A DNA stretch of 60,000 bases, counting the filler, from Hausera hauseri (taxonomy: Eukaryota): the NCBI GenBank assembly GCA_046269625.1. It is 13 parts of 13 records of this genome, joined end to end, with 100 filler letters (N's around TTAATTAATTAA, not from the genome) between each part and the next. Parts side by side here need not be neighbours in the genome. Positions count along the whole stretch, not along the records: positions 4,684 to 8,661 come from JBJURY010843635.1; 12 more parts are not named here. One strand, 5' to 3'. This document shows positions 395 to 60,000 of this stretch, piece by piece. Numbering within the stretch: the first letter of the stretch is position 1; each line of letters opens with the position of its first letter. The notes under the pieces are model-generated. The model had not been told where the DNA came from, did not search any database, and saw nothing but the letters and a program-made list of their open reading frames with translations. Position numbers and translations under genes: made by a program.

Positions 395-2457
395 TTAAAT
401 ACGTTTTTGATTGAATTGTCTTTCGAAATCTTCGTACAAACGTATCGCCAAATTTATCGTCGATTCAGAAATAATTCCCAATTTAGACAGATTCAACTCA
501 TTCTCAGATGTCATTGCACCAACGAAGTTTTGTTTCAACGGGGGTTGTAAAAAATAAATATTCAAAATAATCTGAATTATGTAGCAAGAAAATGGCAAAT
601 TAAAAACAATGAAAAATTCAAATTTAAAATGTATTTATTTTCTACATTTGCAACATTTAAACAACTTTTTTTGAGAGAGTGAAACATATTTCATTTATGC
701 AATTGAAAAAAATGTGAAGTATACAACCGATGAAAATCCGTTTAGCAAAGCGACGAAAATAGAAATCAAATCACTCAGTTCGTTAAACCACATCAATGTT
801 TTCTCGTTAATCGACGTCTGTTCCTTACAAACCAACATATCAAAAGCTATCATTTTTTTGGAATTCTGTGAAAGAGACCTTTGAGTGATTTTATCCATAA
901 AAATTCATTAGAAATACTTCCAGCGCCAAAGGATTTTTTTGGATTAAAAAAATTCAATTTCAATAGTAGTTTTGGCAATTTGTTAATAAGAGGTGGATCA
1001 AATAAGACGATTCAATATCTAGTACTGGGACGAGATTAAGAACATCTGTCTCCAAATCTTGTAAGTACATTTCATCTTGTTCGGCTTGATTATGAAACAA
1101 ATTGATTATGTCCTTTGAAACATTTTCATTGATATCCCTTCAATCATCCTGTCCAATCTGTGTCAGAAGCAATTGCATTTTCACTAGATCAAAATGTAGA
1201 GACCATAGATTAAGTTTATTGAAAATTTTTTTGTCATCACATCGACAATGTCCTTACTAGAACATGACAAACGCCATTGATGCTCTTTGGGGAAACAGAT
1301 ATTTAGCAAGTTGCGAACCTGATTATTTGATATGTTTTTGTCAATCAGCATGTTATCCCGAATGAGCCTATTTGGTATTTCCATGGAAAATTTTATGCAC
1401 ACCCACGGAACACAGCAAATTTCTCGAAGGACTCTCAGAGTCAGATCCCAAATTTCGATTTGGGAAACACTTTCATCAATTTCGATCATATATTCTCGCG
1501 AGCGTTTAGATGAGACGACTGGATTAAATAAACCATCGCTACAATTATCTGCATCTTGAGGCCGACCTTTATCGCTATGTACAGTTAGCATTTTCAAAAT
1601 GTCAACAAAAAATTCTGTCGTAACTTTTGCAAAGAAAACGTTAGTAAATTGACATTTTTCAACTGAAAAGCACTCGTGTTGGACATTACGTTCATGTTGG
1701 ACTCAATCGTGAATAATCGATGTAAAATGAACGTTGCAAGACGCGTGGTTGGAATGCATTTCGGGCTAATGGACGACTGCTCTATAAGTCCCTGTGCCAT
1801 GGCAACGCAAATTACTTTGCTCAGTAGGTCGTTGAATGTGAAACAATGTCTAGCGATCAGAGTGACGATGAGTACAAAAATGTTATCGAATACAAGTAGG
1901 TCATTCGATTGAAGTATAGAATTAAAATCCTTCATAAACGTTGATTACCCAAAAAATGCTTTGAAGAGCATAAGAAGACTAAAGAATCCTGTGATTTATT
2001 TTCCAGGAAGCGTAGACACTTGAAGAACAGTACCAACAATCATGGAGTTATATCGAGCAAGTTGATCAGCATCCTGACAGCGGACGATTGTGAATATGCG
2101 ATTGACGACGAAACTGAAACGGGCGGATGGGTTGCTTTGCAGTTCATCGAGGTACCTATCCAGATAAGCCGAACATCCTTTGACGAAATCACAAGCAAAG
2201 CTCTCACCGAGATACTCAACGGTCGGGCTTCTGGACTTGTCGGGCTCAATCGGCCTGTACAAAATGGACTCAACTTTTACAATCGAACTGAATTTGCCGT
2301 TGGAACAAACGATGAAGCACGATTGGTAAAGATTAAGGTGAGAAGCGAACGTGCACCGGGACGCCGATGGACTGCGGAAACTAACACGGATGTGCATGAA
2401 AAACGTCTGGAATCGGGCATCATCTCTGTATCTGAGGTTTATTTGCGCGAAAATCAG
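395..2457 (-). pseudogene. MED12: Intronless, disrupted internal fragment of Mediator subunit MED12 (probable retrocopy cargo)
   Basis: Consecutive minus-strand ORF pieces SASRCTFASHLNLYQSC, NPSARFSFVVN and LIARHCFTFNDLL...PTTRLATFILHRLF match MED12 segments (SAERCILAYLYDLYTSC, NPANRYSFVCN, LIARQCLLLEDL...PGARLTCRILLHLF). Stops and frameshifts; no evident introns over about 2 kb. Confidence 0.8.
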
Positions 2458-2570
2458 AAATTTTCGAGGTGGAAGATCGGGACCCGCCTATGGGCCCGAT
2501 GTGGCAGCAACAGAGTCCCGCCGTGCCCAACCAAATGGGTCAAAGGGCACCGGTCGCTGTGGGCACCACA
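2458..2570 (-). repeat. Gypsy family A LTR 5' head (about 113 bp) inserted into a Polinton penton gene and joined to MED12
   Basis: Minus strand starts TGTGGTGCCCACAGCGACC and aligns with 9145-9256 and 20447-20559. The TG end abuts mid-penton sequence at 2571. Confidence 0.85.
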
Positions 2571-2955
2571 TAAAGCTTTGGCCATGGTATTGGGTTTTGA
2601 AAAACAGCAGTTTGAGGCATCGACGGATATGAAGACGGAGGCGATACATGTTGCAACACTCAAACCCAAACTGAAAACTGGGCTAAGTCAAATGTACATT
2701 TACGTGAACGTCACCGAACCGATTTCGGTCTGTGGAGTACGTGTACCGCTACTCCGTGCAATTTGTCCGGAAAGCAGCAAGTATATTGCCGGCGACAATG
2801 TCACTGTCAAGCTCTATAATTCTATGTACCTACGGTGGCATCTATATCTATAAACAATGTTGAAGTGAATATCCGATGTGACGCGGGCTACCTTATTGAA
2901 TTTCTGTACGGTATTACAACCAGACTAACCCTTCATTTCTGTCCAATCCAACAAC
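2571..2955 (+). pseudogene. Polinton/adintovirus minor capsid (penton, PX), 3' part only
   Basis: KALAMVLGFEK...QMYIYVNVTEPISVCGVRVPLLRAI...EVNIR...LTLHF. Closely similar to the C-terminal part of 17026-17838. The 5' half is replaced by the LTR insertion. Confidence 0.85.
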
Positions 2956-2964
2956 AACAACAAA

Positions 2965-3330
2965 ATGATTGATTCCGAGATCGTTTCCATTCACAATAAA
3001 CCGCAGCAGGGCGGTAAACTGCCGTATTTCGTTGGTAAACAGTATGGCTCTGAATGGTTGCGTACATTGGCACGTTTAGCATTTCCGGTGTTGAAGCGTA
3101 TTGGAGCCGTGGCCGAAAAAACAGCACAGGACGTACTATATGAAAATAAATCGATTTTACCATCACTGAAGGAACACGCCTTGTCCGAAATAAAAAGCGC
3201 TGCATTGGGAGTCGTTGAATCAGTCAAAAAACAATTCGCTGGCAGTAGCTTAATGACGAGAAAACGCCATAGAACATCATCAAGTTTATCAGCCATAAAC
3301 AAACGTCGTCGTCGTACGATTTTCGATTAA
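2965..3330 (+). CDS. Polinton/adintovirus small basic core-like virion protein
   Basis: Intact 121-aa ORF between penton and major capsid. Has QQGGKLPYFVGKQYG Gly-rich motifs, an amphipathic WLRTLARLAFPVLKRIG segment and a basic tail (RKRHR...KRRRR). Confidence 0.7.
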   Translation: MIDSEIVSIHNKPQQGGKLPYFVGKQYGSEWLRTLARLAFPVLKRIGAVAEKTAQDVLYENKSILPSLKEHALSEIKSAALGVVESVKKQFAGSSLMTRKRHRTSSSLSAINKRRRRTIFD

Positions 3331-3334
3331 TTAA

Positions 3335-4547
3335 TTGATGGCATCTGCGAAATCTGAATTGTGTATATTTGACAAAGCGACGCCACAAGTTGTTATTGAC
3401 GATGCGGCATTTAAAGAAATCTATCCCGTTAATTTGGTTTCAACGGGCAATAACAATGGCATTCAATTCAACATTATGGCATGGGACAATGAATACCTGG
3501 ATTTGAACGATACGCTACTCTATGTAAAAGTCATTGTTAAAAAGGACGTGTCAACGGTTCTCGCTGCAACAGACACTGTCACACCGGTCAATTACTTTTT
3601 CCTCACACTGTTCCAGGAGGCTTCACTGACTCTGAAAAGCGTGAAAATCGAAGGCAACATCAGTCCATACAGTATCAAAGCACTCATTGAAACGGCTCTG
3701 AATTACAGCGCAGACACAAAAACGACTTATTTGGCGAAAACCATCGGATACGATGCCACAACGGCAAACCGTCAGGCATGGGTGGCAGAATCAAAACCGC
3801 TTACAATGTGTGGGCCGCTGTACTTTCACTTTTTCGATCAGCCGAAATGCCTACTATCAGGTGTTAAAGCCATGATTCGGCTCATACGAAGTGACAATGT
3901 CTTTTCTTTGAAAACCAAATCTCAAACCCATACTGAAAATTACCGAGGCACGATTATACGTACGTCGAGTAAAAGTAGATCCATCAGTGCTCATGGAACA
4001 TCGATTGGGCTTAGAAACGAAAAATGCCTGTTACTCGATACAACGCACAGAACTCGTCTTTTCCACCATACCGAAAGGTTCAACTACGTTTTACAAACAT
4101 GCACTGTTTGGCGACATGCGATTGACGAATTTTTTCTCGTTACATTTCAAACGACTGTTCAACAAACGGGCAGTTATACCACCGAATCGGAAACGTTTAC
4201 CCATCAGTTTGGGCAGGAATGTGGATTTCGTCGAGACGTACAAGCAAGACTTTGAGTCTAATGATTACGTTTGCATATATATGCAATCTATTGCGCGCAA
4301 CATGGATTTGCTCAACAAAAACATCAACAATATCATATCAATGGATTTATTCAAATCCAACTATCCATTCTTCACTTTTGTCCTGGCTTCGGATTATGAC
4401 GTTGAGCAGACTCAACTACCTCAGCAGGGAAACCTGCGACTGGAGGATCACTTTGCTAAAGCGTTGGCGCAATCTACCGTGATGTACATTTACGGTGTAT
4501 TTGATGCTGAGGTGGAAATAACGAAAAACGGAACCGTCATTGTATAA
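3335..4547 (+). pseudogene. Polinton/adintovirus double-jelly-roll major capsid protein (PY/hexon), frameshifted
   Basis: N-terminal AKSELCIF...PQVVI...EIYPV and EYLDLNDTLLYVKV; C-terminal QGNLRLE.HFAKAL...YGVFDAEVEITKNGTV. Split over ORFs 3335-4255 and 3987-4547. Confidence 0.88.
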
Positions 4548-4583
4548 ATAAAATCCACTGTCTCACCTTTTCAGCGTCGTCGT

Positions 4584-4683
4584 NNNNNNNNNNNNNNNNN
4601 NNNNNNNNNNNNNNNNNNNNNNNNNNNTTAATTAATTAANNNNNNNNNNNNNNNNNNNNNNNNNNNNNNNNNNNNNNNNNNNN
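4584..4683. other. Artificial contig-joining spacer (first of 12)
   Basis: N-run + TTAATTAATTAA (stops in all six frames) + N-run, 100 bp. Repeated at about 8662, 12889, 18286, 23256, 27808, 31885, 36320, 41254, 45821, 50464 and 55807. Adjacency across spacers is not biological. Confidence 0.98.
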
Positions 4684-7367
4684 GACACCATTACATGTTG
4701 ACTGTCTGAATTGAGCCAAAGTGCTTTTTCAACGAGAGGATTGTATTCACCAAAGGGTCTGAAAGTAATGTAAAGATTGTCATCGTGTTGCGGATAAAAC
4801 TGTGTGACATGATACAGAAAGTTATAGATGGCAAATTTCGGACAGCGCATTATTCTGATACGTCTCAAATTTGGCATAGAATCCGCTGGTGGTGCTGTTC
4901 CCGAATTTATAACAATCGCTTGCAGTTCTGGACAGTTTTCCAGCGTGATACTTTTCAATCTGTGACAAGAGATCAAAACTAAATGTGTGATACCGACCTT
5001 TTCCATATGTAATGTTGTTAAGTGAGCAAATGAATTTTGTTTTAATTCAATTTTATACAACCGTGGTTTGAAATAAAGCCGCAATGAGGTCGTATCTAAA
5101 GATACATCTTGGGCTTCCCACTCCCTGGGACTGTGTTTTACGTTAGATTCGGACTGTGTAAAACTTATGGTGGATGGGTTACCAAAATTATCGATGGGAC
5201 ACGAACACAACTTGCAACCATATTCTGTGATGTTGATTGCTGATATCTTTGTGTTTTTAGAATTTGATGTGTAGCCTGAATTCGATTGGTGTCTAGATGA
5301 CAGATTTGCTTTCTGAAAACACTGTTCATCTGACATTTGAAATATGTCCCTCTGCCACACAGCATCAAGCCAATCAATGTTACCACAAACACAAGTTTGA
5401 GTGGAACTGCTCTGAAAATCACTCAAAACACATTCTTCCAAATTTTGCGAACTGCCGATCCAAGACTGTTCTGAAATTCGACGCTTCTTTACTGATTTAT
5501 CTGACTGCGACGTGTCTTTCTTAGCTATTTTGGATGATTTTGGAGTTGGAAATAAAGACTTGTGAATCAATATTCCATGGTTAAGAAAATTGTTAGTGAT
5601 TTTCTCGTTAGAACGCGAACGTTTTCGTTTTGACGTTCCGATCAACTTAGATACTTCTGAGGATTTCGAGGATTCTTCGTGGACAATGGTAGATGTCTGT
5701 TGATTTGAATCGTCTAAAAGCACCAAATTTCCCAAACCCAAATTTTCCAGTCTATGAACCATACTGATGCTTTTCGTCGCATTAACAATCATTGATGCTC
5801 TTAGGAATTCATTTTGTCTGATAGAAGCACCAAGATTCGTATGCTGGGCTCCTAAAACTTGAGCTCCTGCGGCATTATAGGATGCCAAACCAACCGTACT
5901 CATTCCAAACATTCCGCTATCTGCATTTGGAATTCTGATATCAGTGGTATTTAAACTTGGAATAAATATTCGAGAGAACCGATTTGTTGCTGGATTAGAA
6001 TTATCCATAATATCGCCGACATTTATGGATGTATTCGTCAAATTATTATTAGTGAGATTGAATGAATCGTGTGAATTAATACTTCCAGGAGGTCGAATTG
6101 GGAATATTGGGCAGTTTCTATCACAGAGGCCTTCGATGGTTTGATTTCTGACTGTCATGTTCTGAGTATTCATAGGAAATGTAGTTAGCTTCCCACGAAG
6201 ATTAAAACCATGAAATACATGAAAAGGAATGTTTTGATTACGATTGTTACTCAAGCAATCACTGAAAACAGAACTGTCGATTTCTGCCTGAAGAACATCA
6301 CATTTTGGAAGTGGTAGAAATAAGTCACGAAGTACCAGCATTTCGAGCTGAGGAAATGCAGTGGCAGGATGATTTAAAATGAAAGATATAGTCTCTGGTC
6401 TTATTCCGGGGCAATTTTCAAGGGTCAATGATTTGAGAGGAAATGTGGCGGGTAATTGGTCGTCATTTTCTGAATTATTGTCAAACGGATTTATGGGTTT
6501 ATTCCCAATGGGATATGGCCACTTCCTTGGAGACCACATCATGGGATCTTCGACATAAATAGCATGACGAAGATGAAGTGATATGAGTTTCGGAGCGATT
6601 TTCATCAATGCGGCTACTCCTCTATCTGTTATCTTACAAATAGGTAGACTATGATCTGGCGAGTCATGAAGCCCCAAATTATGAATTTCGACACCAGTAA
6701 GCATTGACTGAAACGGATCTTGATAACCCAAAATGATACTCTCCAATTTCTGCATAGTAACTTTTTGATCAACCATAGATTTTTCAAGGACACATTCATA
6801 CGCCTGTGCCAGCATTAGTAAATTCAGAAATCGCAATAAATCAAATTCCAAATCTGACGAAGGCAACGGTGTGTATTTTTCCAAAATATGTTGAAAAGCC
6901 CAAGCGGAACATTGGAAATGGGTGCAAGCTACTTTCGTACTGTCAAGTTCAATTCTGGTTTCCTTTGATCCCAAATTACAATGTAAACAACCGATATTGA
7001 ACAAAATCGAAGCTTCTTCCAGCCGGACATCATTGCATGATATCGGCGAACCTGATATTGGATCATCCCAAGTCCAAATGACACAATTAACGGAATCATC
7101 GGAATTTAATGGAAATCTTGCTTTCAAAAACTGCAACTGACAGAAGTAACGTTTCAAACTGAGCAACGAATTTAGACTTTCAGTACCAGTGAGACAATTT
7201 TTACGTAAATTGAGAAATTCTTTAAATGCTGTATCATTTACCGCAACTGTATCGTTTACCACAGCTTTACATTGGACTTTCAAATTATATTTCTTTACTG
7301 ACACCATTGTTAAATTTTTGTTATATTGGTTTTGTGGATATAAAATTCTGGAAGATGTACGTGCCAA
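4684..7367 (-). CDS. Uninterrupted chimeric ORF: partial BRO1 domain (PTPN23/HD-PTP-like) fused in frame to the central and C-terminal part of an FBXO38-like protein; 3' end runs into the gap
   Basis: aa ~47-203 LKRYFCQLQFLKARFP...EEASILFNIG...VACTHFQCSAWAF...LMLAQAYECVLEKS is BRO1-like. From MQKLESIILGY onward, IHNLGL...ITDRGVAAL...LTLENC and VGITHLVLISC...YITFRP resemble FBXO38. About 895 codons with no stop or intron. Confidence 0.8.
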
Positions 7368-7385
7368 AATGTAGGTATTGTCGAG

Positions 7386-7489
7386 TTATAGAGAATGATA
7401 AAAATCCGATTATTACGGTAATAAAATTCCAACAGAATTATAGAGAATGATAAAAATCCAATTATTACGGTAATAATATTCCAACAGAA
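7386..7489. repeat. Tandem duplication of a 52-bp unit
   Basis: TTATAGAGAATGATAAAAATCCRATTATTACGGTAATAAWATTCCAACAGAA twice, just upstream of the chimeric ORF. Confidence 0.9.
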
Positions 7490-7744
7490 AAAAAAACGTC
7501 TTTATGATATGAAATGTAAAAATCTAATTGATAAAGATCAATATTTATTTATTATCAGTAACCATTTATTCTAAACTCTGTACAATATTTAAACAACATT
7601 TTTTTTAATTGATCATTGCCAAATTAACACAACAAAATATAAAAAATATTTTCATCAGTCTACTGATCAAAAATTCTGCGTAGTTCTCGATGGTTGACAT
7701 AGGAGAATATTGGAATCACAATTTATTTCGTCGATATAAAGTCG

Positions 7745-8390
7745 TTATTGGGGATAGATTTGTTTGGACAGGTGTTGAGAATTGAGAAAAACTGTCAAAT
7801 TTAGATTCTTCAATTGCGTTATCTGGGTGACTGAATTGTCTAGAGGATTATTTGTACGATCGTGTTCGTCATTTGGCTGCGGCAATTTGTCAGTCAAAAC
7901 CGGTATATCAATTGAATTTCTTTTATCGTCGCTTTGCGTTTCCTCCATTATTTCGACGGGATTGCCAATGAACGTACCTCATGTACTTTCTGTTATTGGA
8001 TGAATATTAACTGTCGAAAGATTCAAAAATTCGTTCGTACAACTCGGTATTCGATTGATATTTTTCTTTTGATGGAACATCATCTGTAGTACTGATAAAA
8101 TAAACTGGGGAGATTTTAGGTGAAGAAATCAATTGTTAGATCGTTTTCAATAACAAGAACTCTTGGTAATAACTTTTAACTGCATCGATTTCGGCTTTCA
8201 TCTTTTTTTATTTTTTTAATCGATCTGAATTGCGCAGTTCTTGATAAGCTTTGTTCCATTTATTGATCAGAAACATTGTCATTGGAGATTTTGGGAATTT
8301 TGAATTAGATAGTATGAATTGCCATAGAACATTAGGAATTTTGAAACAGATTGTTGTATTGTTTTTCTTGAAAAGTTGGCTCTTCTACCT
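7745..8390 (-). pseudogene. Unidentified degenerate host-like coding fragment directly following an LTR head
   Basis: Broken minus-strand reading frames, including ORF 7745-7948. No family recognised. Confidence 0.35.
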
Positions 8391-8661
8391 GAATCCGCGG
8401 CACCACACTACCCCCCGTTACGGAAATGACACTTTATTAGAGAAAAGAAAGTTAGTAGACAGAGTAGTGGGGTGTAGAAGAACTTGACAGAAGCAAATTT
8501 TGATGTGATTGAAACAGAAACGTGGAAAGAATACGTTTTGTGAGCTATTGCATCTTAGTATGGACAAGGCGTTGAATTCTGTCGACATTCTGTTCTCTGC
8601 TGTATTTGCTAAAGGTAACAGTCTTACTCTTCTTACTGTGTTGTTTAATTACTTGTTGAGT
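8391..8661 (-). mobile_element. Gypsy family C 3' region: PPT plus 17-bp LTR head
   Basis: Aligns with 59322-59590. Minus strand reads ACGGGGGGTAG (PPT) then TGTGGTGCCGCGGATTC, then unrelated sequence. Confidence 0.8.
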
Positions 8662-9144
8662 NNNNNNNNNNNNNNNNNNNNNNNNNNNNNNNNNNNNNNN
8701 NNNNNTTAATTAATTAANNNNNNNNNNNNNNNNNNNNNNNNNNNNNNNNNNNNNNNNNNNNATATTTTCCGAATAGCTGCTTCATAATTAAATTGACATA
8801 TTTTGGATATTGAATCACCAGTCAATTTGTAATTTCTTTGGCATGATTTATGAAAGCGTTCATTCCAATTACTTCTTCTAGCGCCCTTTGCATCACTGAA
8901 AATTGAAATAAATTGCTCGTTGTTAGACTGAGTATATGGCAGGATGAAAACGGAGCAGACGCCTTCAAAATATTCGTGATAGATTGCATACTATTGGTCC
9001 TTTTACTGACTGCATTGTTTGCACTTAGTGAATTGCTAGATCGAACAGCAATAGCCAGTTTACCGAAAGGGTTAATATCGGTGGCTATTGGGGTAATTGA
9101 ATTAACAATATACTCGGTAATCCTCTCGTCTAATTCGACGGATT

Positions 9145-9256
9145 ATATTCTTAAAGCGGGAGTCGGACCCGACTAACGATCCGACGCGGCGATATAGGAC
9201 GCCCGGTCGTGTCCAATCAAACGGGCCAAAGGACACCGGCCGCGGTGGGCACCACA
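9145..9256 (-). repeat. Gypsy family A 3' LTR head (about 112 bp), followed by unrelated host-like sequence (8762-9144)
   Basis: Minus strand: end of integrase ORF (9335), CGGGGATGA purine tract, then TGTGGTGCCCACCGCGGCC. Homologous to 2458-2570 and 20447-20559. Confidence 0.85.
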
Positions 9257-12200
9257 TCATCCCCGTGGCAAAGTGAAAACTATAAAGATCAAAATAGACG
9301 GAAAGAAAAAATCGCTAAACCAAAAGTGTCTGTGTCAACTGGTCTTAGTGTGAACAAGACGTTGGGTGCCTTCTACTAATTTGTCCCTGCTATACATGCT
9401 AAATGTAACTGCGTGTTTTGTTTGTATGCGATGTGTTTGCTTGTGGAGTATGGAGTTTGGGAAAAAATTGTCAGATTTTGTTGTGGGTGTTGTGTCGTGC
9501 AAAGACGAGTCAGGATGAAGCGAAGAAGAATGTGAAGGAGGAAGAGAGATTGGTGGAGACGGATGGTTAAAGGTATTTAAGAGAGTGTTAGAAGACAAAG
9601 GACTGACAAGAGGTGTAGTAGTGGATGAAGGAGAGACAGAAGTTGGAGTAGAAAGTGGAATTGTATTGGGCGAAAGAGTAGAAGTAGAAAATGAAACAGA
9701 AGGATTGGTAGAGACAGGAAGAGTGGTAGGGGTAGAAGGTGTGGAAAATGATGAAGCGGAACTAGGAACAGAAAGAGAAGGTGGAACAGGTGTAGCAACA
9801 GATATAGGAATATCAGGGAGTGTAGGAGTAAGAAAAGAGGTTGACGTGTCGATTGGTGAAATGTCGTCGACAAAGAAGGCGGGCTTCAAGTTTGTGATAT
9901 GCACCGTAAGTTCTTTGTCATCTTTAGAAATAATAGCGTTATGTGAATGCAGCTGTATCAGTTTATAGGGCCCAGATACCGCGGCTGAAAACCGCACGGC
10001 GTCTGATTTTTTAGCCATACGAATTTTGCCGAATACAAATCTTCGGGTAAATATGTTTTGTTTTTATGAAGTAACGTGCAAAACGAATATTTGCTGACCG
10101 TAACAAAGTGACTTTGTGCCGCCCGTATCATTTCGCCTGTAGGAGTGTCGTCTAGGGCAGTTACTTCGAATAGTGATCGTATAGGAGCTCCGAATAAGGC
10201 TTCAGTAGGTGAGCAGACGTAGTGTTCCGCCAGCTGAGCAGAACAAACGGAAGAAGATTTGTCCAACTAATGTTGGACTCTGCAAGAATTCTTAGTGACG
10301 TTTTCTATGTGCGGTGGAAGCGTTCTACAAGGCCATTCGATTGGGGGCGATAAGGCATAGTATGTATGTGTTGGATCCCTAAACGGTTAATGAGGGATTT
10401 GAACAGGTTGGATTCAAACTGTGAACCCTGGTCCGTGATGATTAAGCGAGGTGATCCAAACTTGCTAATCCATGTACGAATGAAAACATCAACTATGGTA
10501 TCGGTGTTCGTGCTCCACAGAGGGATGGCTTCTGGCCATCGCGAGGAACGGTCCATCATGGTGATGATGAATTGATGACCGTTGTTTGGAGGAAGAGAGC
10601 CAACGATGTCGATATGCACGGATTCGAAACGCGATGTGCAGGGGAAGTGGAACAGTGGTGGCTTTAGATGCTTAGTTGTTTTGTATTTTTGGCAAGCCAC
10701 GCACTCCTTAACCCATGCGTGCACATCAGAACGCATTGACGGCCAAATTACTTGTCGGTGGAGTAAACGAAAGATGGCTTTAGCACCAGGCTGATGTAGC
10801 GAATAAACACTGTTGAATGCTTGCCTTTGCAATGATGGTGCAATAATTATTACGAATGACATAGTTTGGAAGTGTCTAAAGCCACGCCGTCAAGGATTGT
10901 GCAAGACTTGAAAGAATTAAGCTTGTCCTGAGGTGGCTGGTTCTGTTGAAGTTGAGCTTGCGTAAAAATCGGTGAGAAATTAATCGAACTAACCGACCTA
11001 GATAAAAAGTCGGCAACCAAATTATTAACTCCGTTAATATGTTTTATGTCGAAGTTAAATATCGTCAATTATGATATCTGTCGTTCTTGGCGTGTGGAAG
11101 GATGTTTCATAGCCATGATGTTAAGTAAGGGTTTGTGATCGGTCTGTATGGTAAAATAGCGAGCGATAAGTAGGCGGGAGAAATGCTTTAAAGCGAGAAC
11201 GATGGCCAATAATTCTTGATCGAACGTTGAATATCTAGTTTCAGGGGTTGTTAGCTTACGAGAAAAAAATTCTGGTGGTTGATTTTCTCCTTTATAGATT
11301 TGGTGAAGCACAGCACCTACCGCAGTAGTTGAAGCGTCTCTGGTAAGGATAAGTTCCGTGTCAGGCTTGGGGAAAGCGTAAATGTCGACGGTCTTAATTC
11401 CTTCACGTAGCTTATCACGCTTATCAACCAATTCAAATGTCCACTGAATTGGCTGATGTTTTTTGACGCCGCTTTAGTGTGCAAATGGCGCTGTCAGTTC
11501 GGAACAATATGGTATATATTTATGTACAAAGTGTAGTGTACCAAGGAAGCTGCGCATTTCAGTGGTCGTATGTGGTAACTGGATATTCTTAAAAGCTTCA
11601 ACTCGGTCTGGTTTGGGAGTGGCCTGTGAAAATCTGTCATTTTGCCTCGGTCATGCCTTGACAATTTGATTGCGATTCAGCAACATTAAAAGGATAATTA
11701 AAATTCTATTTCACTTAAAATTTTACAATGATAGTAAATATGAATATTTAAACAAAACGAAATGACTATATAATTTTGTGTGCTATTGGGTGAATGTGGG
11801 CGCCACATGGCCGTCTGGTGAAATAACGTGGCCCAAAAAGTTGATGCGCTTTTTAAAGAAATGGAGTTTGTCAAAATTGACTCGGAGATTATGGTGTTTA
11901 AGGCGTTGGAATAGCGCGCCGAGGTGTTCATCGTATTGTTTGGCTGAAGACGAAACGACCAGAATATCATCAATGTAAGGGTGTGCAAACGGGAAATCTG
12001 ATAGAATTGATTCAGTATGTCGCTGAAAAGTTTGCGCGGCATTTCGCAAACCCAATGACAAACACATATTCGTAGAGACCAAAAGGAGTAGTGACAGCAG
12101 TCTTTTCTATGTCGTCGGGTGCCACCGGTATTTGGTGATATGCTTTGGCCAAATCGATGCTCGAGCAAATTGCGGTTAAATTAAGGCGATACAAGATATC

Positions 12201-15310: not shown

Positions 15311-15391
15311 TAAGTATAATAGTAACCGTAATAAATTACTTAATAATAGAACGACGACGAAGAAGAAAAGGTGAAACACAGCGGATTTTAT

Positions 15392-16628
15392 TTATACAAT
15401 GACAGTTCCGTTTTTCGTTATTTCAACCTCGGCATCAAATACACCGTAAATGTACATCACGGTAGATTGATCCAACGCTTTAGCAAAGTGAACTTCGAGT
15501 CGTAGGTTTCCCTGCTGAGGTATCTGCGTCTGCCCAATGTCATAGTCCGGAGCCAGAACAAAGGTAAAGAACGAGTAGGTGGACTTGAACAAATCCATCG
15601 ATACGCCATTGTTGACATTTTTGTTCAGCAAACCCATGTTGCGCAAGATAGATTGCATATATGTGCAAACAAAATCATTAGACTCAAAGTCTTGTTTGTA
15701 CCACTCCACGAAATCTTCATTCCGGCTCAAACTGATATAATTCACATTGATATGTGTAAATGTTTCCGAATCAGCAGTTTAACTGCCCGTTTGTTAAACA
15801 GTCGTTTGAAATGTAACGAGCACAAATTTCAGCAATCGCATATCGCCAAACAGAACGTCCTTGTAAAACGTTGTCGAACTTTTGGGTATGGTATAAAACA
15901 CGAGTTCTGTGCATTGTATCGGGTACCAGGCATTTTGTGTTTCCAAGCCCAATCGATGTCCCATGAGCACAGATTGTGCTACGTTTACTCAACGTACGTA
16001 TAATCGTGCCTCGGTAATTTTCAGTATGGGTTTGGGATTTTCCATGGCGGTTTTCTAACAAAAGACATTGTCGCTTCATTTGAGCCGAATCATGGCTTTA
16101 AAACGGGGCAGTAGGTATTTCGGCTGATCGAAAAAGTCAAAGTACAGCGGTCCACACAGTGTAAGCGACTTTCATTCTGCCACCCATGCCTGACGGTTTG
16201 CAGCTGTGGCACCGTATCCAATGGTTTTCGTCAAATGAGTCGTTTTCGTGTCTGCGCTGTAATTCAGAGCCGTTTCAATGAGTGTTTTCATACTGTATAG
16301 ACTGGTGCTGTCTTTAATTTTCACACTGTTCAGAGTCAGTAATGTCTCCTGGAACAGTGTGCGGAAAAATTAATTGGCCTGTGTGACAGTGTCTGTTGCA
16401 GCGAGAACCGTTAACGAATCCTTTTTAACAATGACTTTTGCATAGAGTAGCGTATCGTTGAAATCCAGGTATTCATTGTCCGATGCCATACTGTTGAATT
16501 GAATGTTGATGTGATCGTCCGTTGAAACCGAATCAACGGGGTAGATTTTCTCAAATGCCGCAATTGTCAATAACAACTTGTGGCGCCGCTTTGTCAAATA
16601 TGCACAAATCAGATTTTGCAGATGCCAT
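15392..16628 (-). pseudogene. Polinton/adintovirus major capsid protein, second copy, disrupted
   Basis: Collinear with 3335-4547 (MASAKSD...EYLDFNDTLLYAKV...QGNLRLEVHFAKAL...ITKNGTVIV), with different lesions. Confidence 0.88.
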
Positions 16629-16651
16629 TTGACTGTCTGTCAATCAATCAA

Positions 16652-17018
16652 TCAATCGCAAATCGTACGACGACGACGTTTGTTTATTGCTCATGAGCTC
16701 GATGATGCTCTACGGCGTTTTCTCATCTTCAAGTCACTGCCAGAAATTTGTTTTTTGACCGATTCAACGACTTCCCGTGCAGCGCTTTTTATTTTGGACA
16801 AGGCATGTTCCTTCAATGATGGCAAAAATCGATTTGTTTTCATATAGTACGGCCTGTGCCGTTTTTGCTGCTACGGCACCGATACGCTTCAACATCAGAA
16901 ATGCTAAGCGTGCCAATGTACACAACCATCCAGAGGCATACTGTGTACCAACGAAATACGGCAGTTCGCAGCCCTGCTGGGGTTTACTGTAAATGGAAAC
17001 GATTTCAGAATCAATCAT
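16652..17018 (-). pseudogene. Polinton small basic core-like protein, second copy, frameshifted
   Basis: MIDSEIVSIYSKPQQG..LPYFVGTQY; paralogous to 2965-3330. Confidence 0.75.
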
Positions 17019-17025
17019 ATTGTTG

Positions 17026-18110
17026 TTATTGGATTCGACGGAAATGAAGCGTTAGACTGGTTGTGGTACCGTACGGAAATCCAATAAGGTAGCCCGCATC
17101 ATATCGGATATTCACTTCAACATTGTTTGTAGATGTAGATGCCACGGGTAGGTACATTGGATTATCGAGCTTGACAGTTACATTTTCGCCGGCAGCATAC
17201 TTGCTGCTTTCCGGATAAATTGCTCGGAGTAGCGGTACGCGTACTCCACCGACCAAAATCGGTTCGGTGACGTTCATGTAAATGTACATTTGACTTAGTT
17301 CCGTTTTCAGTTTGGGTTTGAGTGTTGCAACATTTGCCACCGCCGCCCCTGTCTTCGTATATGGTGTCTCAAACCGCTGTTTTTCAAAACCCAATACCAT
17401 GGCCAAAGCTTTGTCCAATGAAATGTCGACAATATCCTTAACTAGTTCAAATTTAACGTACCCATCTGCATCTGACTCGAAAACTTTAAATATCGCCTTG
17501 TACTTTTTATTTGAAGAAGAAAAGTGTTGACAGAGCTGTGCTACAGATTCACAATAGACATTGTCTCCAGTCGATAGATATAACGTTGACCCCCTTCCTC
17601 TTGTATAGGTAAATTTCACCGTTGTCTGGTAATATACGGGTGTTAATCTTGGAGCAACTATATTTTTACTTTTAATAAAATTGCCTTTGTACTCTATATT
17701 TGTGAATCCAAATTTTTGCGCCATCTCAGTGGACTCAAATGCAACAGTAAATTCAAAATTTGCCATAAAACTAAGTTTTCCCATGAAATATAAACACCGA
17801 TTTTGCCGTGTGAACCGGAACCTGTTTCGGTCGTGCAAATGGCCGATTCTCCAACAGTTGTTTTATTGTTAGTAAGTGTCAGAGGATAAGAATGTGCTTT
17901 GGTTTCAGTAACAGGCTTGTTGTACGTTATTTTCATACTACCTTTCAATGAAACCGGTGTGTAGGAAAAGTTAAATTCCGTCACTGCAACCTCCCACTTT
18001 CCAGCAGATAAATCCAACGGATTGTTCCGATCTACAACGTTTCAACTAGCGAAATTGCTCGGACGAGTCGTCGGACAACTGTTGCTCGGCAACACTACGT
18101 AAACACTCAT
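17026..18110 (-). pseudogene. Polinton/adintovirus minor capsid (penton, PX), full length, disrupted
   Basis: Starts MSVYVVLPSNSCP...LDLSAGKWEVAVTEF (LPSN and G.WEV motifs); ends MYIYMNVTEPILVGGVRVPLLRAI...TSLTLHFRRIQ. Confidence 0.88.
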
Positions 18111-20446: not shown

Positions 20447-20559
20447 TGTGGTGCCCACAACGGCCAGTGCCCTTTGGCCCATTTGGTTGGACACGGCCGA
20501 GCGTCAGTTGCCGCCGCGTCGGGCCTATACTCGGGCCCGATCATCCGACTCGAGGATTC
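20447..20559 (+). repeat. Gypsy family A LTR 5' head (113 bp) inserted antisense into a family A pol
   Basis: TGTGGTGCCCACAACGGCC...CCGACTCGAGGATTC. The TG end abuts mid-pol sequence at 20446. Confidence 0.87.
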
Positions 20560-50463: not shown

Positions 50464-50578
50464 NNNNNNNNNNNNNNNNNNNNNNNNNNNNNNNNNNNNN
50501 NNNNNNNTTAATTAATTAANNNNNNNNNNNNNNNNNNNNNNNNNNNNNNNNNNNNNNNNNNNNTCATTTTTATCCAAA

Positions 50579-51145
50579 ATGTCAGTCTTATTTGAACGAT
50601 CTTATCCAAACGAACCGCTACCGAACGTGCAATATCCTGAAGTTTATCGAGAACGAATCGTTCATAAAATTCGTGAATACAACATTCTGTTGATACTTAA
50701 TGAAGTTTGGACGGAACAATTTATGTGCTTTTTCTCATTCTCACTTAAGTACATTCTTACCAGTCGTTGTTCGATTTTATTCGGATTGGATAAAGCACAT
50801 TTTGTTGAAATACCTACAAGACTTAAAGATAATGACGATAAAAACCTGTTCCGTTATCAAGATATCAAGGCTGAAACTCCCTCACAAATTCTCGATCCCA
50901 TTTTTGACAAAGTAAGCAAGGAATATTGCAAAATACTCCTGATTTTTGAAGAAGCCCGGAAAATATCGTTGGATATGTCGTTTATTTATTTGAATATTTC
51001 GGAAAACGAAGCGGTAAAGTTGGTTAGAACGTTAATGGGAAATAATTTGATGGTGAAAAGTTACGACAAGGTGTATGAATGTAACATGTCCCGCGTGAAT
51101 GGTCTGTTTCGGGATTATTTGTCAAAGCAGTACTTAGAAATGTAA
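50579..51145 (+). CDS. Unidentified 188-aa ORF immediately upstream of the vigilin fragment
   Basis: Open frame with protein-like composition. No family recognised; may extend 5' into the gap. Confidence 0.35.
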   Translation: MSVLFERSYPNEPLPNVQYPEVYRERIVHKIREYNILLILNEVWTEQFMCFFSFSLKYILTSRCSILFGLDKAHFVEIPTRLKDNDDKNLFRYQDIKAETPSQILDPIFDKVSKEYCKILLIFEEARKISLDMSFIYLNISENEAVKLVRTLMGNNLMVKSYDKVYECNMSRVNGLFRDYLSKQYLEM

Positions 51146-51193
51146 AAGTCGTTTACTCTCTTTTATCTAACGTTATTTCACTAAGTATCAGTT

Positions 51194-53045
51194 ATGGTTG
51201 AATGTCGAAATGAGAGACCCGCACGACACGGCTTTTCCATCTTTGGAAATTTCACAAAAGCCGGAAAATAGTCAAATGTCAATTCCGTTCTCCAATTACT
51301 TTGCCAAAATGAGTTTAGTTTATTCAAAAAAATATGCAACATCCAGTCAGACAATCACAACCACATTCGCAATACCATTTGACGAAAGAAATTCATTGAA
51401 CCGGATGCCGTTGCGTCAAATTCACTGAAACGAAATTTAACAGAAATCTGCTCCAGTTGGGCAGTTCGTGTGGAAAGTCACATAGCACCGGATCAGAGTT
51501 TGAGAATTTTCATCATTGGTGAAAAACAATCGACATTAGATGCGAAAAAACGTGTATTGCGATTGCTTCAGACACAGAATGAAATCAGTTTGGATATTCC
51601 AAAAGAATTTCACAAAAGCCTCATTGGAGCCAAAGGAGCAACATTGAAAGACTTGGAAAATGAGTCAAGCACGCAGATTCTTATTCCGAAGCCAAATGAA
51701 AATTCCAATATTATTCGTATACGAGGTCCCAAAGGCGGTGTTGAACATGCAAAACAATTAATTCAAAAGCTTGTGGATGAAATGTTAAAAATTGGTCAAC
51801 AGGTAGTTGAAATTGACAAGAGGTATCACCAGTTGGTATGCCACAAGAATAATTCAAGTCTTTATGTTGTGATTGAGCGAACGAACCTTCGTCTCGATAT
51901 TCCTCCCTTCTCTGTAAATAAAAATGAGATCTCAATTTCAGGTGATATAGGTGTCACTCAAGCTGCCAGTATTTTAAAACAGACATATAATATGATGCGA
52001 GCAAATAATCAGGAATTGCAAATTGAAATCCCAAAAGAAAAGCATCGCTTTGTTATTGGTCCGAAAGGAAGTGGGATTAAAGAGATCTTGGATAGCACAA
52101 ATGTTTGGGTCGAAATAAATGACAATAAACTCTCAGATGCTTCTCCAAATACAATTTGTCTTTTGGGACCAAAGGAAAACCTGGGACCGTCTCTTACAAT
52201 GGTTTTCATGAAATCGGAAAGCATCAATATTATAACTGTTGATGCACCTGGGTCGCTTCACAAGTATATTATTGGTAAAAATGGGTCAAATTTGGAAGAA
52301 CTAACAGGATAAAGTTAATGTTCATTTGAGTTTTGAAACGGAAACCAATCAAATTATAATTGAAGGAGCACCAGAAGAGGTTGAAGTAGTAGCGGAGAAA
52401 TTGAAAAAGAAAGTATTCGACTTTCAGACATATTTAACTCAGATACAACTTGAAATTCATCCTGTTCATATTAAAAATGTCATCGGTACGGGTGGATCAA
52501 ATATTCAGAAACTCAGAAAGGAAACAAATTGCAGTATTCGATTCTTCATGGACCCAACAAACAGATTTGTAACAATTGTTGGAAGTCCAGCAGAAGTGGA
52601 AGTCTCTAAAGCATCTCTGTTGAAAACTGCAGAGCACATCGAAAATACGAAACGTAAAGTTGTCATTCTCACACACTATTTGATTCCACAGCTGATTGGT
52701 CAGAATGGTAAAGGATTAAAAGAAATCAAAGAAAAATATCCAGAAGTCCGCTTTACAATTCCATCACCAGAAGCAAAAATAGATTTAATCACTTTACTAG
52801 GTCCCCGTAAAGATGCGGATTCTGTTGCTCTCATTCTTCAGAAAAAGCATAATGGTTGAGTCCAATTACTCAGAAAAAATCATTATACCTCGAAAATATC
52901 ACAAAGTCATTATCGGTAGAGAAGGAATAACAATCAAAGATTTAACTAAAACAACAAATACAAAGTTTCAAATTCCTCATCCGAATGATGAAAAGGATGA
53001 AATTATTATCACAGGGAAAAAATCCGACGTTCAAAATGCCATTCA
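51194..53045 (+). pseudogene. HDLBP: Intronless, disrupted 5' half of vigilin (multi-KH domain protein)
   Basis: Tandem KH GxxG repeats HKSLIGAKG, HRFVIGPKG, HKYIIGKNG, NVIGTGG, LIGQNG and HKVIIGREG. N-terminal AFPSL and ITTTFAIPFDER as in vigilin. Frameshifts; similarity ends abruptly. Confidence 0.9.
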
Positions 53046-54341
53046 TAAAGATCAGCTACTTGTAGCTATTCGCGGAAAAACGCCCGATGGAGAATCTCTG
53101 AATAGTAAAACTATTTTAGAAATGACTTTGGAACTGAAAGATGACTCTAGTAGGATAGTTGTTCACACTACTGCACCTTGTTTCGTACCGAAAGTTTATA
53201 CAAAAATTATAACTTACATGTCTATTTATTGCAATAAAACGCTTTCGACGTATAGTGAAAGACAGTCGTTCAAAAACACCAACGACACTATTGATCGATT
53301 CAACAATTTAGAATCGGCGTATCTACTCAGTATACTTCACATTCAAGAGAATCGATCAGTTTTGGCCACTGCAGTATTCCAAAGGTCACAACTCAAATCC
53401 GGACATATCACCCGTAAGACGACGCGGTTGACCTGCAAAGACACCTATGTGCAATCCCCACCACTGGTCATGGAGAAATCTATACACTATCAAGTGAGAT
53501 ATTTTTTATACATTTTTTATCCATGATATTTTTTATCCATTTTTCCCCTACTACCTTGCCCATTATTTTGCTGGCACAACATAGCTTTCTCGTAGTTTTG
53601 TAAGTAGGGAAATATCTCAATCTTATTTACATAGACGCAACAGTAGTTTCGGACTTGTTGTATATTCATATAAGCGTTTAGCCCATACCATTCGTTGTAA
53701 GATATCCAACTACGTGTTCACGACCCTTTTTAGATCATTTTAAGACCATATTCCGATCCCTAAGATTCATCGAAAACAAACCAGTTAATGATTACAGTAC
53801 CCCTTTTACATTGTGTCTACTGTTTGTTATTTGTCGAAATCAAGTTGTCAGTGAAAAGCTACTTCTGCTATGTGGTTTCACTTCCAAATCTCAATCTACC
53901 GCTTGTCATAATCGAATGCTGACGGAACAGATTATAAACTTACTTAACTATTCCGTAAAAGTTAGGAATTTAATTGTAACAAACGGTCACATCAAAATTA
54001 TATTTAATAATAATCCGTCGAATAGTAAACAATTTAACGAAGTTTTCAGTTTTTCTTTACGAGATTTTGTATGCGATTTAATAAACATTACATCGTGGGA
54101 AAATTGGGATTATTCAAATAGATGGTATTCATCATTTTACATTGGTCCATGTTGGCAGCATTACCTTTCCTCTTTAATTACCATTCCACCCGTTTTTGGT
54201 CGTCTCGAATATTTGACTTACAACTTTTATCCAGTAAAGGCGTCCCTTGGAGACAGATATTGCTATTATTCTGACAGGACTCCTACCACCTTTGGAATTC
54301 TAAATAATTTCAGCAAAATACTTCTTTGTTTTAATCCTTAG

Positions 54342-55806
54342 GTGATAAACTTCGTCTATCCTATTCAACCGTTGCTTCACTTTATCCTTTGTCCACAACA
54401 TAACTTTTCGGGATACCTTGCACTCGCAAGAATTCGCAAACTTGACGACGGCCACATAAAAATTAAGGAAGTGGTCCAGGCACTTCATTCTTTTGAGTTG
54501 AAAACAAACCATAGCATGATAAATCAATCAACCTTCCGTACTACATCAATAAGTGCCACGCCATGGTGTGTTTTTTCACTACACCAACAACTAGAGTTTA
54601 CACCGACTATACCTTTTTCATTCTTTCTAAACAATCACCATTTACTGACGCATAGAATGACAAATTCGATAGATGCATCCTACCTACACAACTACGTACT
54701 ACACGTCGCCAACCTCTTCGATTTTTATCTTACGTACAATAATCTTCCAATAACTAACACCAATCTCAATAGCGTTTCTGTACCTTCAACCCATTGCATC
54801 ATCATTCACATACACATTTGCTTACATCGTGGAATGGAATCATCACCTACCATTAACACTACTGACCGAAATACCTCCAAAACATCACATTTTGAGTTCA
54901 ACCAAAAATCGTCGATCGTTACCACGCCATCGTCTTTCAGTAGTTATGCTTCTACAGTCTCGCCAGTCAAACACACTTCTCAATGCACAGAGTATTTTAT
55001 TGACCACAACAGTCTAACAAAACATGGCTTAGCTTCCACAAAGTCTGGTTGTAATCAAACAATATCACTGATCCGGTAACTAAGGCCTATAACCTGCTTT
55101 GTCTTTTACCAACAACTGTAAAAACGGCCATTCATGATTTGCTCCATATCTTCTAGAATCCTGATCCATACACGCATCTTTACAACTCCGTTTTGAAACT
55201 TACGGAACCATCTATGGACTCAATAATTCACCGTTTCTTCAACGACAATGCAATGGGGGAGCAAAAACTATCTGATTTCCTAAGAACTTCACTCGTGCAA
55301 TTTCAAACACTTGGCGTGACCAAACAACATAACGCTGATTTTCTGCGACGCTACTTCTTGAATGCATTGCCCATACAAATTAAGGCCTTACTTACTGTCG
55401 TTGAAGATTTGACGACTCTTGATCAATTGTCCGAACTGGAGGACAAAACATATGAGGTTTTGAACGCACACACTCAACCAATCATTTCTGTAGCAGTTAC
55501 TACCAACAATGTTTCACTCGAACAGCAGTTAAACGAATTACGCGCCAAAAATGCGGCACTCCATCACACCATCAACTCTATCAATGATAAATTGAATAAT
55601 CTTTCTTTACAGTGTCGTAATGTGCCTTTGTCTAACTGAACACGTTCTCCCTTCAGAAATCGAACATCTTCACCCACGAGGTCGCTTGTATGCTATTATT
55701 ACACCAAATTTAGTAACAACGCAAATAAGTGTTGCTTAGGTTGTAAATATTATTCGCCAAATCTAGATTCAAGTAATATAATTTGCGTCTATCATTCAAA
55801 ATTCGG
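54342..55806 (+). mobile_element. Ty3/Gypsy gag region, degenerate
   Basis: NITDPVTKAYNLLCLLP, MGEQKLSDFLR...FLNALPIQIK.LL...LDQLSEL.DK, a coiled coil, then CYYYTKF...A.KC...C knuckle-like motifs. The 5' boundary is uncertain. Confidence 0.72.
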
Positions 55807-59308: not shown

Positions 59309-59338
59309 TGTGGTGACGCCAGAATCCGCGGCACCACA
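59309..59338 (-). repeat. 30-bp mini-LTR with 7-bp terminal inverted repeats
   Basis: Minus strand TGTGGTGCCGCGGATTCTGGCGTCACCACA, directly after the purine tract ACGGGGGCAG. Confidence 0.78.
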
Positions 59339-60000
59339 CTGCCCCCGTTATAAAATGACACTGTTGGGGCGAAAGCAGAAAGATAAAGCAGTGAGGTGTA
59401 GACGAACTATTGAAAGAAGCAAGTTTTTGATATGATTGAAACAGAAACGTGGAAAGATTACGTTTTGTGAGCTGTTGCATCTTTGTATGGACAAGGCGTT
59501 GAATTTTGTCGGCATTCTGTTCTCTCCTATATTTGCTGAAGGTAACCGTCTTATGTTTCTTACTGTGTTAATTGATTGCTTGCTGAGTTGGTTGGGAAAA
59601 AATTAAACTTTGATTTGATGTGTCAGCAGCTTGAGAACTGATCGGTATAGCGTTTGGTGTAATGTTTTGAGTTAATGCAGGCTTTGGAGTAGCAGGTTGT
59701 CGTGCAGGTAAAATTGGAGAAGAATTGAAAGAATCAAGAAAGTTTTGTGTGGATTGGGTGTATCATCGACGAAGAATGCTGGTTTTACGTTATTTATGTG
59801 TACGTTTTCCTCTTTATCGTTTTTGAGTATGGTAACTGTGTGTGAACTTAGGTTGAGGACTTTAAGTGGTTCTAAATAGTTTGGTTGGAATCCTGTAGGT
59901 GAAGGGTTTTTATCCAAACGAAGTTTGCGTTGAATAATGAATCAGGTAAGTATGTTTTGTCTCCATGTACTATTTTGCAGAAAGAATCCTGGCTTAACTG
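59339..60000 (-). mobile_element. Gypsy family C integrase C-terminus and 3' UTR
   Basis: GFQPNYLEPLKV...VHINNVKPAFFVDD is homologous to family A GFQPRYLGPYK...VHITNLKPAFFVDD. The 3' UTR matches 8408-8661. Confidence 0.88.

Follow-up and report, generated by a model that had tools for sequence, protein, structure and literature searches.

Analysis of a 60,000-nucleotide (nt) stretch of DNA from Hausera hauseri (assembly GCA_046269625.1), hereafter the window, identified on the minus strand of one of its contigs (4684-8661; JBJURY010843635.1) an open frame that joins part of a PTPN23/HD-PTP-type BRO1 domain to the C-terminal half of FBXO38, behind the end of a Ty3/gypsy long terminal repeat (LTR) element. 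The in-frame join between the two halves is real, and we consider it likely that the chimera is a young LTR-mediated retrocopy of several parents, in which reverse transcriptase would have switched templates between co-packaged RNAs and the frame would still be open because the event is recent. The window encompasses 13 contigs of 4.0-5.3 kb and 12 identical 100-nt spacers between them (44 N, TTAATTAATTAA, 44 N). Because it was built by spacer joining, contigs on either side of a spacer are not genomic neighbours. The chimera contig is bounded by the spacers at 4584-4683, beyond which the DNA is non-adjacent, and 8662-8761, and all the chimera and element features described for it lie on the minus strand.

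Five sequencing runs share words with this sequence, and the comparison covered contigs from four of them (X1, X2, X3 and X4), X5 having a share of 0.07. X2 comes from a different study than X1, and X1 may be the source sample of the window itself. X3 and X4 carry small portions of the chimera contig, and missing cover at the junction in these two runs does not constitute evidence. A contig from X2 aligning to 6553-7103 with one difference bridges the join with 213 and 338 letters on its two sides, providing the DNA evidence across the junction that the earlier note on this sequence had called for. The chimera is hence not a misassembly, since a contig from a separate run crosses its join. An X1 contig covers 6000-6795 with no differences. 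It reaches 40 letters past 6755, but measured from the true joint its overhang is 30 letters, and the rule for a spanning contig asks for one more. In X1 and X3, other copies depart exactly at 6766 and proceed in frame as BRO1, with the departing letters, translated by hand, reading R-R-S-G-L-T-A-K-I-A against N-R-K-S-S-I-T-A-K-I-A in the related protein P0005. Given that these copies continue as normal PTPN23 BRO1 from 6766, the junction lies at 6766/6765, and not near 6755 as first proposed.

Homology changes abruptly at this point, in the middle of a domain. A search of 1.84 billion representative proteins yielded 157 proteins for comparison (the best 150 of 807 matches, plus earlier matches), and none of them matched both halves: 141 matched BRO1 only and 16 FBXO38 only. 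In flatworms, PTPN23 and FBXO38 are separate and complete proteins. The fusion is therefore not the normal gene, which answers the question, raised at the outset, of whether related species carry it as such.

Counted from the stop that precedes it at 7385, the minus-strand frame comprises 900 open codons, and counted from an ATG at 7307 it comprises 874; both counts run to 4686, where the contig ends, in agreement with the ~895 stop-free codons noted before. It has no terminal stop because the contig ends at that edge, and an X1 contig that extends 687 nt past 4684 places the real end of the frame beyond the contig. No stop or frameshift interrupts these ~2.6 kb, whereas copies of MTR4 and vigilin elsewhere in the window are broken. 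The product had been described as a three-part protein, with a foreign N-terminus preceding BRO1 and FBXO38, but just two parents, PTPN23 and FBXO38, are recognizable in it.

The BRO1 piece (6766-7300) corresponds approximately to HD-PTP residues 25-197 of a ~360-residue domain. It matches the Pfam BRO1 family (PF03097, E 4e-41, profile positions 35-197 of 385), as expected from the partial domain already recognized, and is of the PTPN23/HD-PTP type: its match to human HD-PTP (E 4e-29) is much stronger than that to ALIX (just 3e-10), and its long relatives carry BRO1, V domain and phosphatase. The alignment with HD-PTP begins at frame residue 14-23, and the V-K-K-Y sequence at frame residues 4-7 matches the K-K-[YF] motif of the relatives once an 18-nt tandem duplication inside the piece (7259-7224) is allowed for. 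The N-terminus of about 46 residues regarded earlier as unrelated is consequently BRO1 sequence, with only M-V-S being foreign. At its other end the alignment stops at residue 196-197. The piece thus resembles PTPN23/HD-PTP (PDB 5CRV, 3RAU) in the N-terminal half of BRO1 and differs from it in stopping at residue ~197, ahead of R198, L202, I206, A336, L338, the V domain and the phosphatase, all of which are missing from the chimera. These five residues contact CHMP4 in HD-PTP, and the L202D/I206D substitutions abolish binding (PMC5501724). In the HD-PTP alignment, the chimera lacks a complete BRO1 domain with the L202/I206 CHMP4 site.

The FBXO38 half (4684-6765) consists of a single frame that runs off the contig. 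It is colinear with the C-terminal half of trematode and cestode FBXO38, its best matches, from around residue 809 of the related protein P0002, and it differs from them in having lost the first ~810 residues. These matches make it very likely that the source organism is a flatworm. The F-box, which lies at residues 109-155 of P0002, is absent as had been stated, and no Pfam match of any kind was obtained in 4686-6764. No solved structure matches this half. The F-box of FBXO38 is needed for SKP1-Cullin-F-box (SCF) assembly and for binding of ZXDA/B (PMC9260856).

After the sequence I-T-[FY]-R, four of the 13 FBXO38 relatives (P0004, P0016, P0125 and P0142) end or lose homology, eight go on with P-F-G and one does not present the pattern. 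Because relatives break at this point while the chimera continues, we infer that a conserved intron at ~4758 is absent from the chimera, which reads through the position; this conclusion derives from the open reading frame (ORF) ends of related species and not from the parental locus. P0016, which is 90% identical to the chimera over 81 residues, also leaves homology before K-V-G-I-T-H at 5000. The eight residues of these 81 that differ are all conservative changes (chance ~0.005 for random changes). By this comparison, no decay is visible in the FBXO38 half, a result expected alike of a selected gene and of a functional gene's fresh copy.

Upstream of the frame, the contig end cuts the 3' end of a Ty3/gypsy pol (8545-8661) within its integrase C-terminal tail, which matches the terminal part of another pol frame (9335-10063; tblastn, 68% over 22 residues). 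A polypurine-tract-like run (8408-8416) stands directly before a 17-nt LTR head (8391-8407), a layout found again at 59347-59339 and before the head at 9256. The head is identical to 59338-59322, and 8388-8661, covering the pol end, purine tract and head, is an 82% DNA repeat of 59319-59588, which substantiates the same-strand head at 8407 that had been reported. At 8394/8395 and 8354/8357 other copies diverge from this head and continue differently, and deletion variants exist. The second of these two repeats belongs to another contig (55907-60000, minus strand), which contains a pol end, a purine tract, the 17-nt head at 59338, 0.9 kb of unrelated filler, the boundary motif described below and a broken copy of MTR4. 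This MTR4 copy is uninterrupted but carries an internal deletion, and GC-rich unrelated DNA follows below ~56480. The head in this contig (59309-59338) is terminated 30 nt on by an inverted copy of its own end (TGTGGTG...CACCACA), resembling a 30-nt LTR. A ~100-nt LTR family related to the head, with its own head TGTGGTGCCC, is present at 9163-9256 (minus), 2464-2570 (minus) and 20447-20553 (plus). Those with heads at 2570 and 20447 sit inside other repeats and have no link to cargo, and the one at 9256 follows a purine tract and pol.

The LTR position of the chimera contig is occupied by two filler segments. The first (7779-8390) is high-copy, decayed and at most weakly coding-like, and long contigs from X2, X3 and X4 carry it with few differences. 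The second (7315-7778) is lower-copy and AT-rich, with three AATAAA sequences (7727, 7570 and 7553) and a 52-nt tandem duplication (7386-7489), and it is skipped by an X2 joint that leads from 7313 to 7779 (shorter side 24 letters). The filler is unrelated to that of the MTR4 contig. Pfam searches returned nothing in all three minus frames of 7600-8390 or in three frames of the MTR4 contig's filler, and a codon-bias scan peaked at 0.17 for the minus strand, the plus-strand control giving 0.14. Summed contig depth in X1, which does not equal copy number, amounts to ~35,000 at 8541-8661, 700-11,000 at 7743-8407, 270-500 at 7344-7742, 130-190 in BRO1 and 94 at the join. From this order of depth, decreasing from the pol end to the join, the coding-like fragment that had been placed between head and ORF is element repeat.

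Immediately before BRO1 stands a 16-nt motif (7314-7299; TTTAACAATGGTGTCA), which can be written as TTTAACA-A-TGGTGTCA and likely represents an LTR end followed by a tRNA-Leu-type primer binding site, although the match could be fortuitous or the motif could come from a different family. It agrees with Steamer-type elements, in which the LTR end TTAAACA is followed by the tRNA-Leu primer site TGGTGTCAGAAG (PMC8905726). The A before the putative primer site and the TG of the site itself form the start codon of the chimeric frame (7307-7305). A second copy of the motif, with one mismatch, is located at 58443-58428, ~0.9 kb behind the same head, and none of 100 shuffles gave two matches. MTR4 homology in that contig begins at the ATG of the motif and in frame with it (weak match, E ~1). 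As the X2 contig joining 7779 to 7313 reveals, a shorter filler can also precede the motif and the beginning of BRO1. A loose end at 7300, where a copy departs into other sequence, likewise contains TTAACA, and three letters (CAG) may be shared at 7300-7298, where the motif gives way to BRO1. The co-occurrence of a purine tract upstream and a primer site downstream of one LTR position suggests two elements in tandem sharing that LTR.

Two other origins of the motif were contemplated. Flatworm spliced leaders end in ATG (PMC12582326), and the ATG of the motif could accordingly be the end of one, but the two motif copies have only seven letters in common before it, which is short for a spliced leader. 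The proposal that BRO1 itself contributes 7301-7314, as a 5' end shortened by a 20-nt deletion, was rejected: despite the TTAACA in the loose end at 7300, none of the joints listed leads from there to the upstream DNA of the window. The window holds no tRNA gene with which the primer site could be compared.

Several other copies share parts of the chimera. Of the 24 loose ends on 4684-7340, eight were inspected, and among these copies exit the BRO1 piece or the DNA upstream of it at 6964, 7050, 7076, 7300 (other upstream sequence) and 7335. Those at 7300 and 6964 both end in AG on the gene strand, compatible with an intron acceptor or with coding sequence. A copy in X3 has a longer BRO1 and a 71-nt deletion. 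In X1 and X3 the BRO1 5' piece is attached at 7076 to a different sequence, constituting a second BRO1 chimera. Diverged copies of the FBXO38 3' part, ~93% identical, are frameshifted at three positions (4730, 4801 and 5017) and contain a stop at 5119. Their depth is 5-23 against 94 for the X1 contig at the join, figures that again do not convey copy number. Synonymous changes account for 13 of 40 differences in these copies (at least 70 differences in all, several contigs pooled), versus 27% under no selection (p 0.48). Judging from these changes, they are earlier captures of the same FBXO38 mRNA end that have decayed. The other BRO1 junctions and the frameshifted, ~7%-diverged FBXO38 copies together imply that the chimera is one product of many. 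X1 contigs break at 6000-6030, and the accompanying depth step from 117 to 94 suggests a further, near-identical FBXO38 3' copy that is joined upstream to something else. A low-depth record, 93.6% identical, ends at 6187 with 110 unaligned letters.

These observations can be accommodated by the following sequence of events. An element whose LTR comprised a short fixed head and variable filler, ending in TTTAACA and the primer site, would have captured a BRO1 mRNA directly behind that site, where three letters may be shared. The BRO1 cargo would then have multiplied into copies whose 3' parts were longer or otherwise different, one of which would have switched at 6766 to a spliced FBXO38 RNA, in frame by chance. 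The BRO1-FBXO38 product would probably have been copied onward as a non-autonomous element. This scheme retains two proposals of the earlier note, serial template jumps between mRNAs and their occurrence inside an LTR element: the join is real, the switch falls within a domain, the inferred intron is absent, and the pieces lie in sense behind the Ty3/gypsy end, with other junction variants in existence.

The recency of the chimera is addressed by its relation to other records. No second record with at least 80% identity was found on 5307-5929 or 6197-6641, where X1 depth is flat (117 and 94.1). Flat depth with no diverged record implies that the parental copy either collapsed with the chimera or was filtered out, and the lack of a diverged parental copy over these intervals agrees with the suggestion that the chimera is very young. 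Young retrocopies have been reported in frame in 14 of 17 cases, which was ascribed to divergence below 1% (Tan et al. 2016, PMC5131818). Since joins are numerous, an in-frame one among them is to be expected.

Some aspects of the data weigh against a recent, LTR-mediated origin. Contig assemblers remove small bubbles, and such removal could hide a divergence of 1-2%, at which 0.9-1.9 stops would be expected under drift. Furthermore, an identical parent should cause X1 contigs to branch at 6765 and at the inferred intron positions, yet they run through these points without a break, which requires that the branches were pruned or filtered. Neither parental locus was seen whole, and the eight loose ends inspected did not include the letters that precede the FBXO38 part in its parent at 6766/6765. 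Intron loss concerns the FBXO38 half and not BRO1, and the 3' LTR and target-site duplication would fall outside the contig. Regarding the boundary motif, only nine of 12 letters match when counted from the start of the Leu site, the motif was recognized after the fact, and part of it (the V-S codons) may be MTR4's own in the MTR4 contig. Moreover, the CsRn1 clade of Ty3/gypsy, which the GPY integrase motif of related pol frames and possibly a CHCC-like gag tail elsewhere in the window would fit, has a tRNA-Trp primer site (PMC2582038). The Trp site TGGTGAG/CCCCG is not matched here, the motif at 7306 being TGGTGTCAG, of Leu type, and the CHCC-like motif itself (C-x2-Y-x9-C-x3-C, ~55690-55745) is decayed and resides in another, unlinked contig.

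Among the alternatives, the join could have been made between two existing cargo elements, by RNA template switching or by DNA recombination or repair, instead of through fresh capture of an mRNA. Both halves are indeed multi-copy elsewhere, as evidenced by the BRO1 variants, the older FBXO38 3' copies and the depth step at 6000-6030. The older FBXO38 copies are, however, ~7% diverged and frameshifted while the FBXO38 half of the chimera is undecayed, and no other record shares 6197-6641, so we regard this route as unlikely. That assembly wrongly fused two repeats or genes would be conceivable for a short unplaced contig with multi-copy halves, in which the X1 contig, possibly from the source sample, advances just 30 letters past the joint; it is made very improbable by the X2 contig from another study, with its 213 and 338 letters on either side and a single difference. 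That BRO1-FBXO38 is a normal, ancient gene of the lineage, with an LTR nearby by chance, could be argued given that the parental loci were not directly seen, yet it is hardly credible when none of the 157 proteins compared matches both halves, flatworms have PTPN23 and FBXO38 as two complete proteins, and other copies from this organism carry on past the joint as normal BRO1.

The chimera might also be a selected new gene comparable to maize Bs1, held open by purifying selection, with a transcript made from the element, translated from the ATG at 7307 and acting perhaps as a dominant-negative FBXO38 C-terminus or as a helper of the element. In keeping with this, 2.6 kb have stayed intact while the MTR4 and vigilin copies are broken, the join and the ATG are in frame, the ATG of the motif is also in frame with MTR4, and the chimera is present in two samples from different studies. 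On the other hand, no diverged parent is seen, one third of joins would be in frame by chance and joins are many, and 17 ATGs and five AATAAA sequences stand between the LTR head and the start codon. The two X2 differences within the frame are both non-synonymous, which is uninformative. The proposed function, a link between ESCRT (endosomal sorting complex required for transport) and a ubiquitin ligase, found no support. Such a link to ESCRT-III is unlikely because L202/I206, in the CHMP4-binding helix with R198, and the F-box are both cut off, and the chimeric protein, if translated, would likely bind neither CHMP4 nor SKP1. We therefore judge a selected gene quite improbable. We see similarly little prospect for a broader version in which the family would operate as a factory of chimeric ORFs, with the LTR end and primer site supplying a start codon, cargo (BRO1, MTR4) captured in frame, and the F-box-less FBXO38 amplified, expressed and selected.

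A young LTR-mediated retrocopy thus remains the probable interpretation, and on the features tested the chimera groups with the multi-parent retrocopies of Tan et al. (2016). It is flanked upstream, on the same strand, by LTR-element sequence (pol end, purine tract, head and boundary motif), it contains partial copies of at least two parents (BRO1 ending at 6766, FBXO38 without its first half), and, on the basis of the relatives' ORFs, it has lost a parental intron at one FBXO38 position. Known cases of this class include CG4799_CG11924_r of Drosophila and the four-gene "Super" retrocopy of mouse (Tan et al. 2016, PMC5131818). As described there, these share with the chimera partial sense-strand mRNA pieces of two genes within an LTR element, in frame when young; they are copied onward as non-autonomous elements and may have a recurring switch site, as BLASTOPIA does (PMC5131818). 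In contrast to the cases described, which replace part of the internal ORFs, the cargo here begins directly at a motif resembling a primer site, from which its ATG comes, and a 17-nt head and unrelated filler make up the LTR position. The maize Bs1 LTR element likewise has a hybrid ORF assembled from pieces of several host genes, and is reported to be transcribed and translated (PMC13317346); in the chimera, no divergence from the parents is seen.

Additional candidate cargo and unrelated elements were observed in other contigs of the window. At 50564-55806 (plus strand), a frameshifted, uninterrupted vigilin (KH domains, 51383-53050) lies upstream of a gag-like frame, and weak Pfam matches to CLEC16A and MEIOB at 53682-54338 may be further cargo or noise. 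A tubulin C-terminal fragment (PF03953, 37091-37720) is possibly a captured host piece, as is a broken frame at 1184-1944 with no Pfam match, which we take to be MED12-like. The window also contains a type B DNA polymerase fragment (PF03175, 43754-44434) and a gene block present twice at 85% identity (2572-4583 and 15354-17412), presumably Polinton/Maverick-like capsid genes, for which no Pfam match was obtained. Broken frames of the Monjiviricetes fusion glycoprotein family (PF24664; 31338-31883 and 48531-50255) are probably borne by LTR elements.

A literature search found no flatworm case of an LTR-mediated chimeric retrocopy. On the present interpretation, the chimera would show cleanly, and in a recent case, how an LTR retrotransposon shuffles exons in a flatworm, and it adds to this class of retrocopies a base-exact switch point and a recurring, primer-site-like capture boundary that supplies the start codon. 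Should the frame prove to be under selection, it would represent a new gene traceable from its first copying step, and its importance would be far greater.

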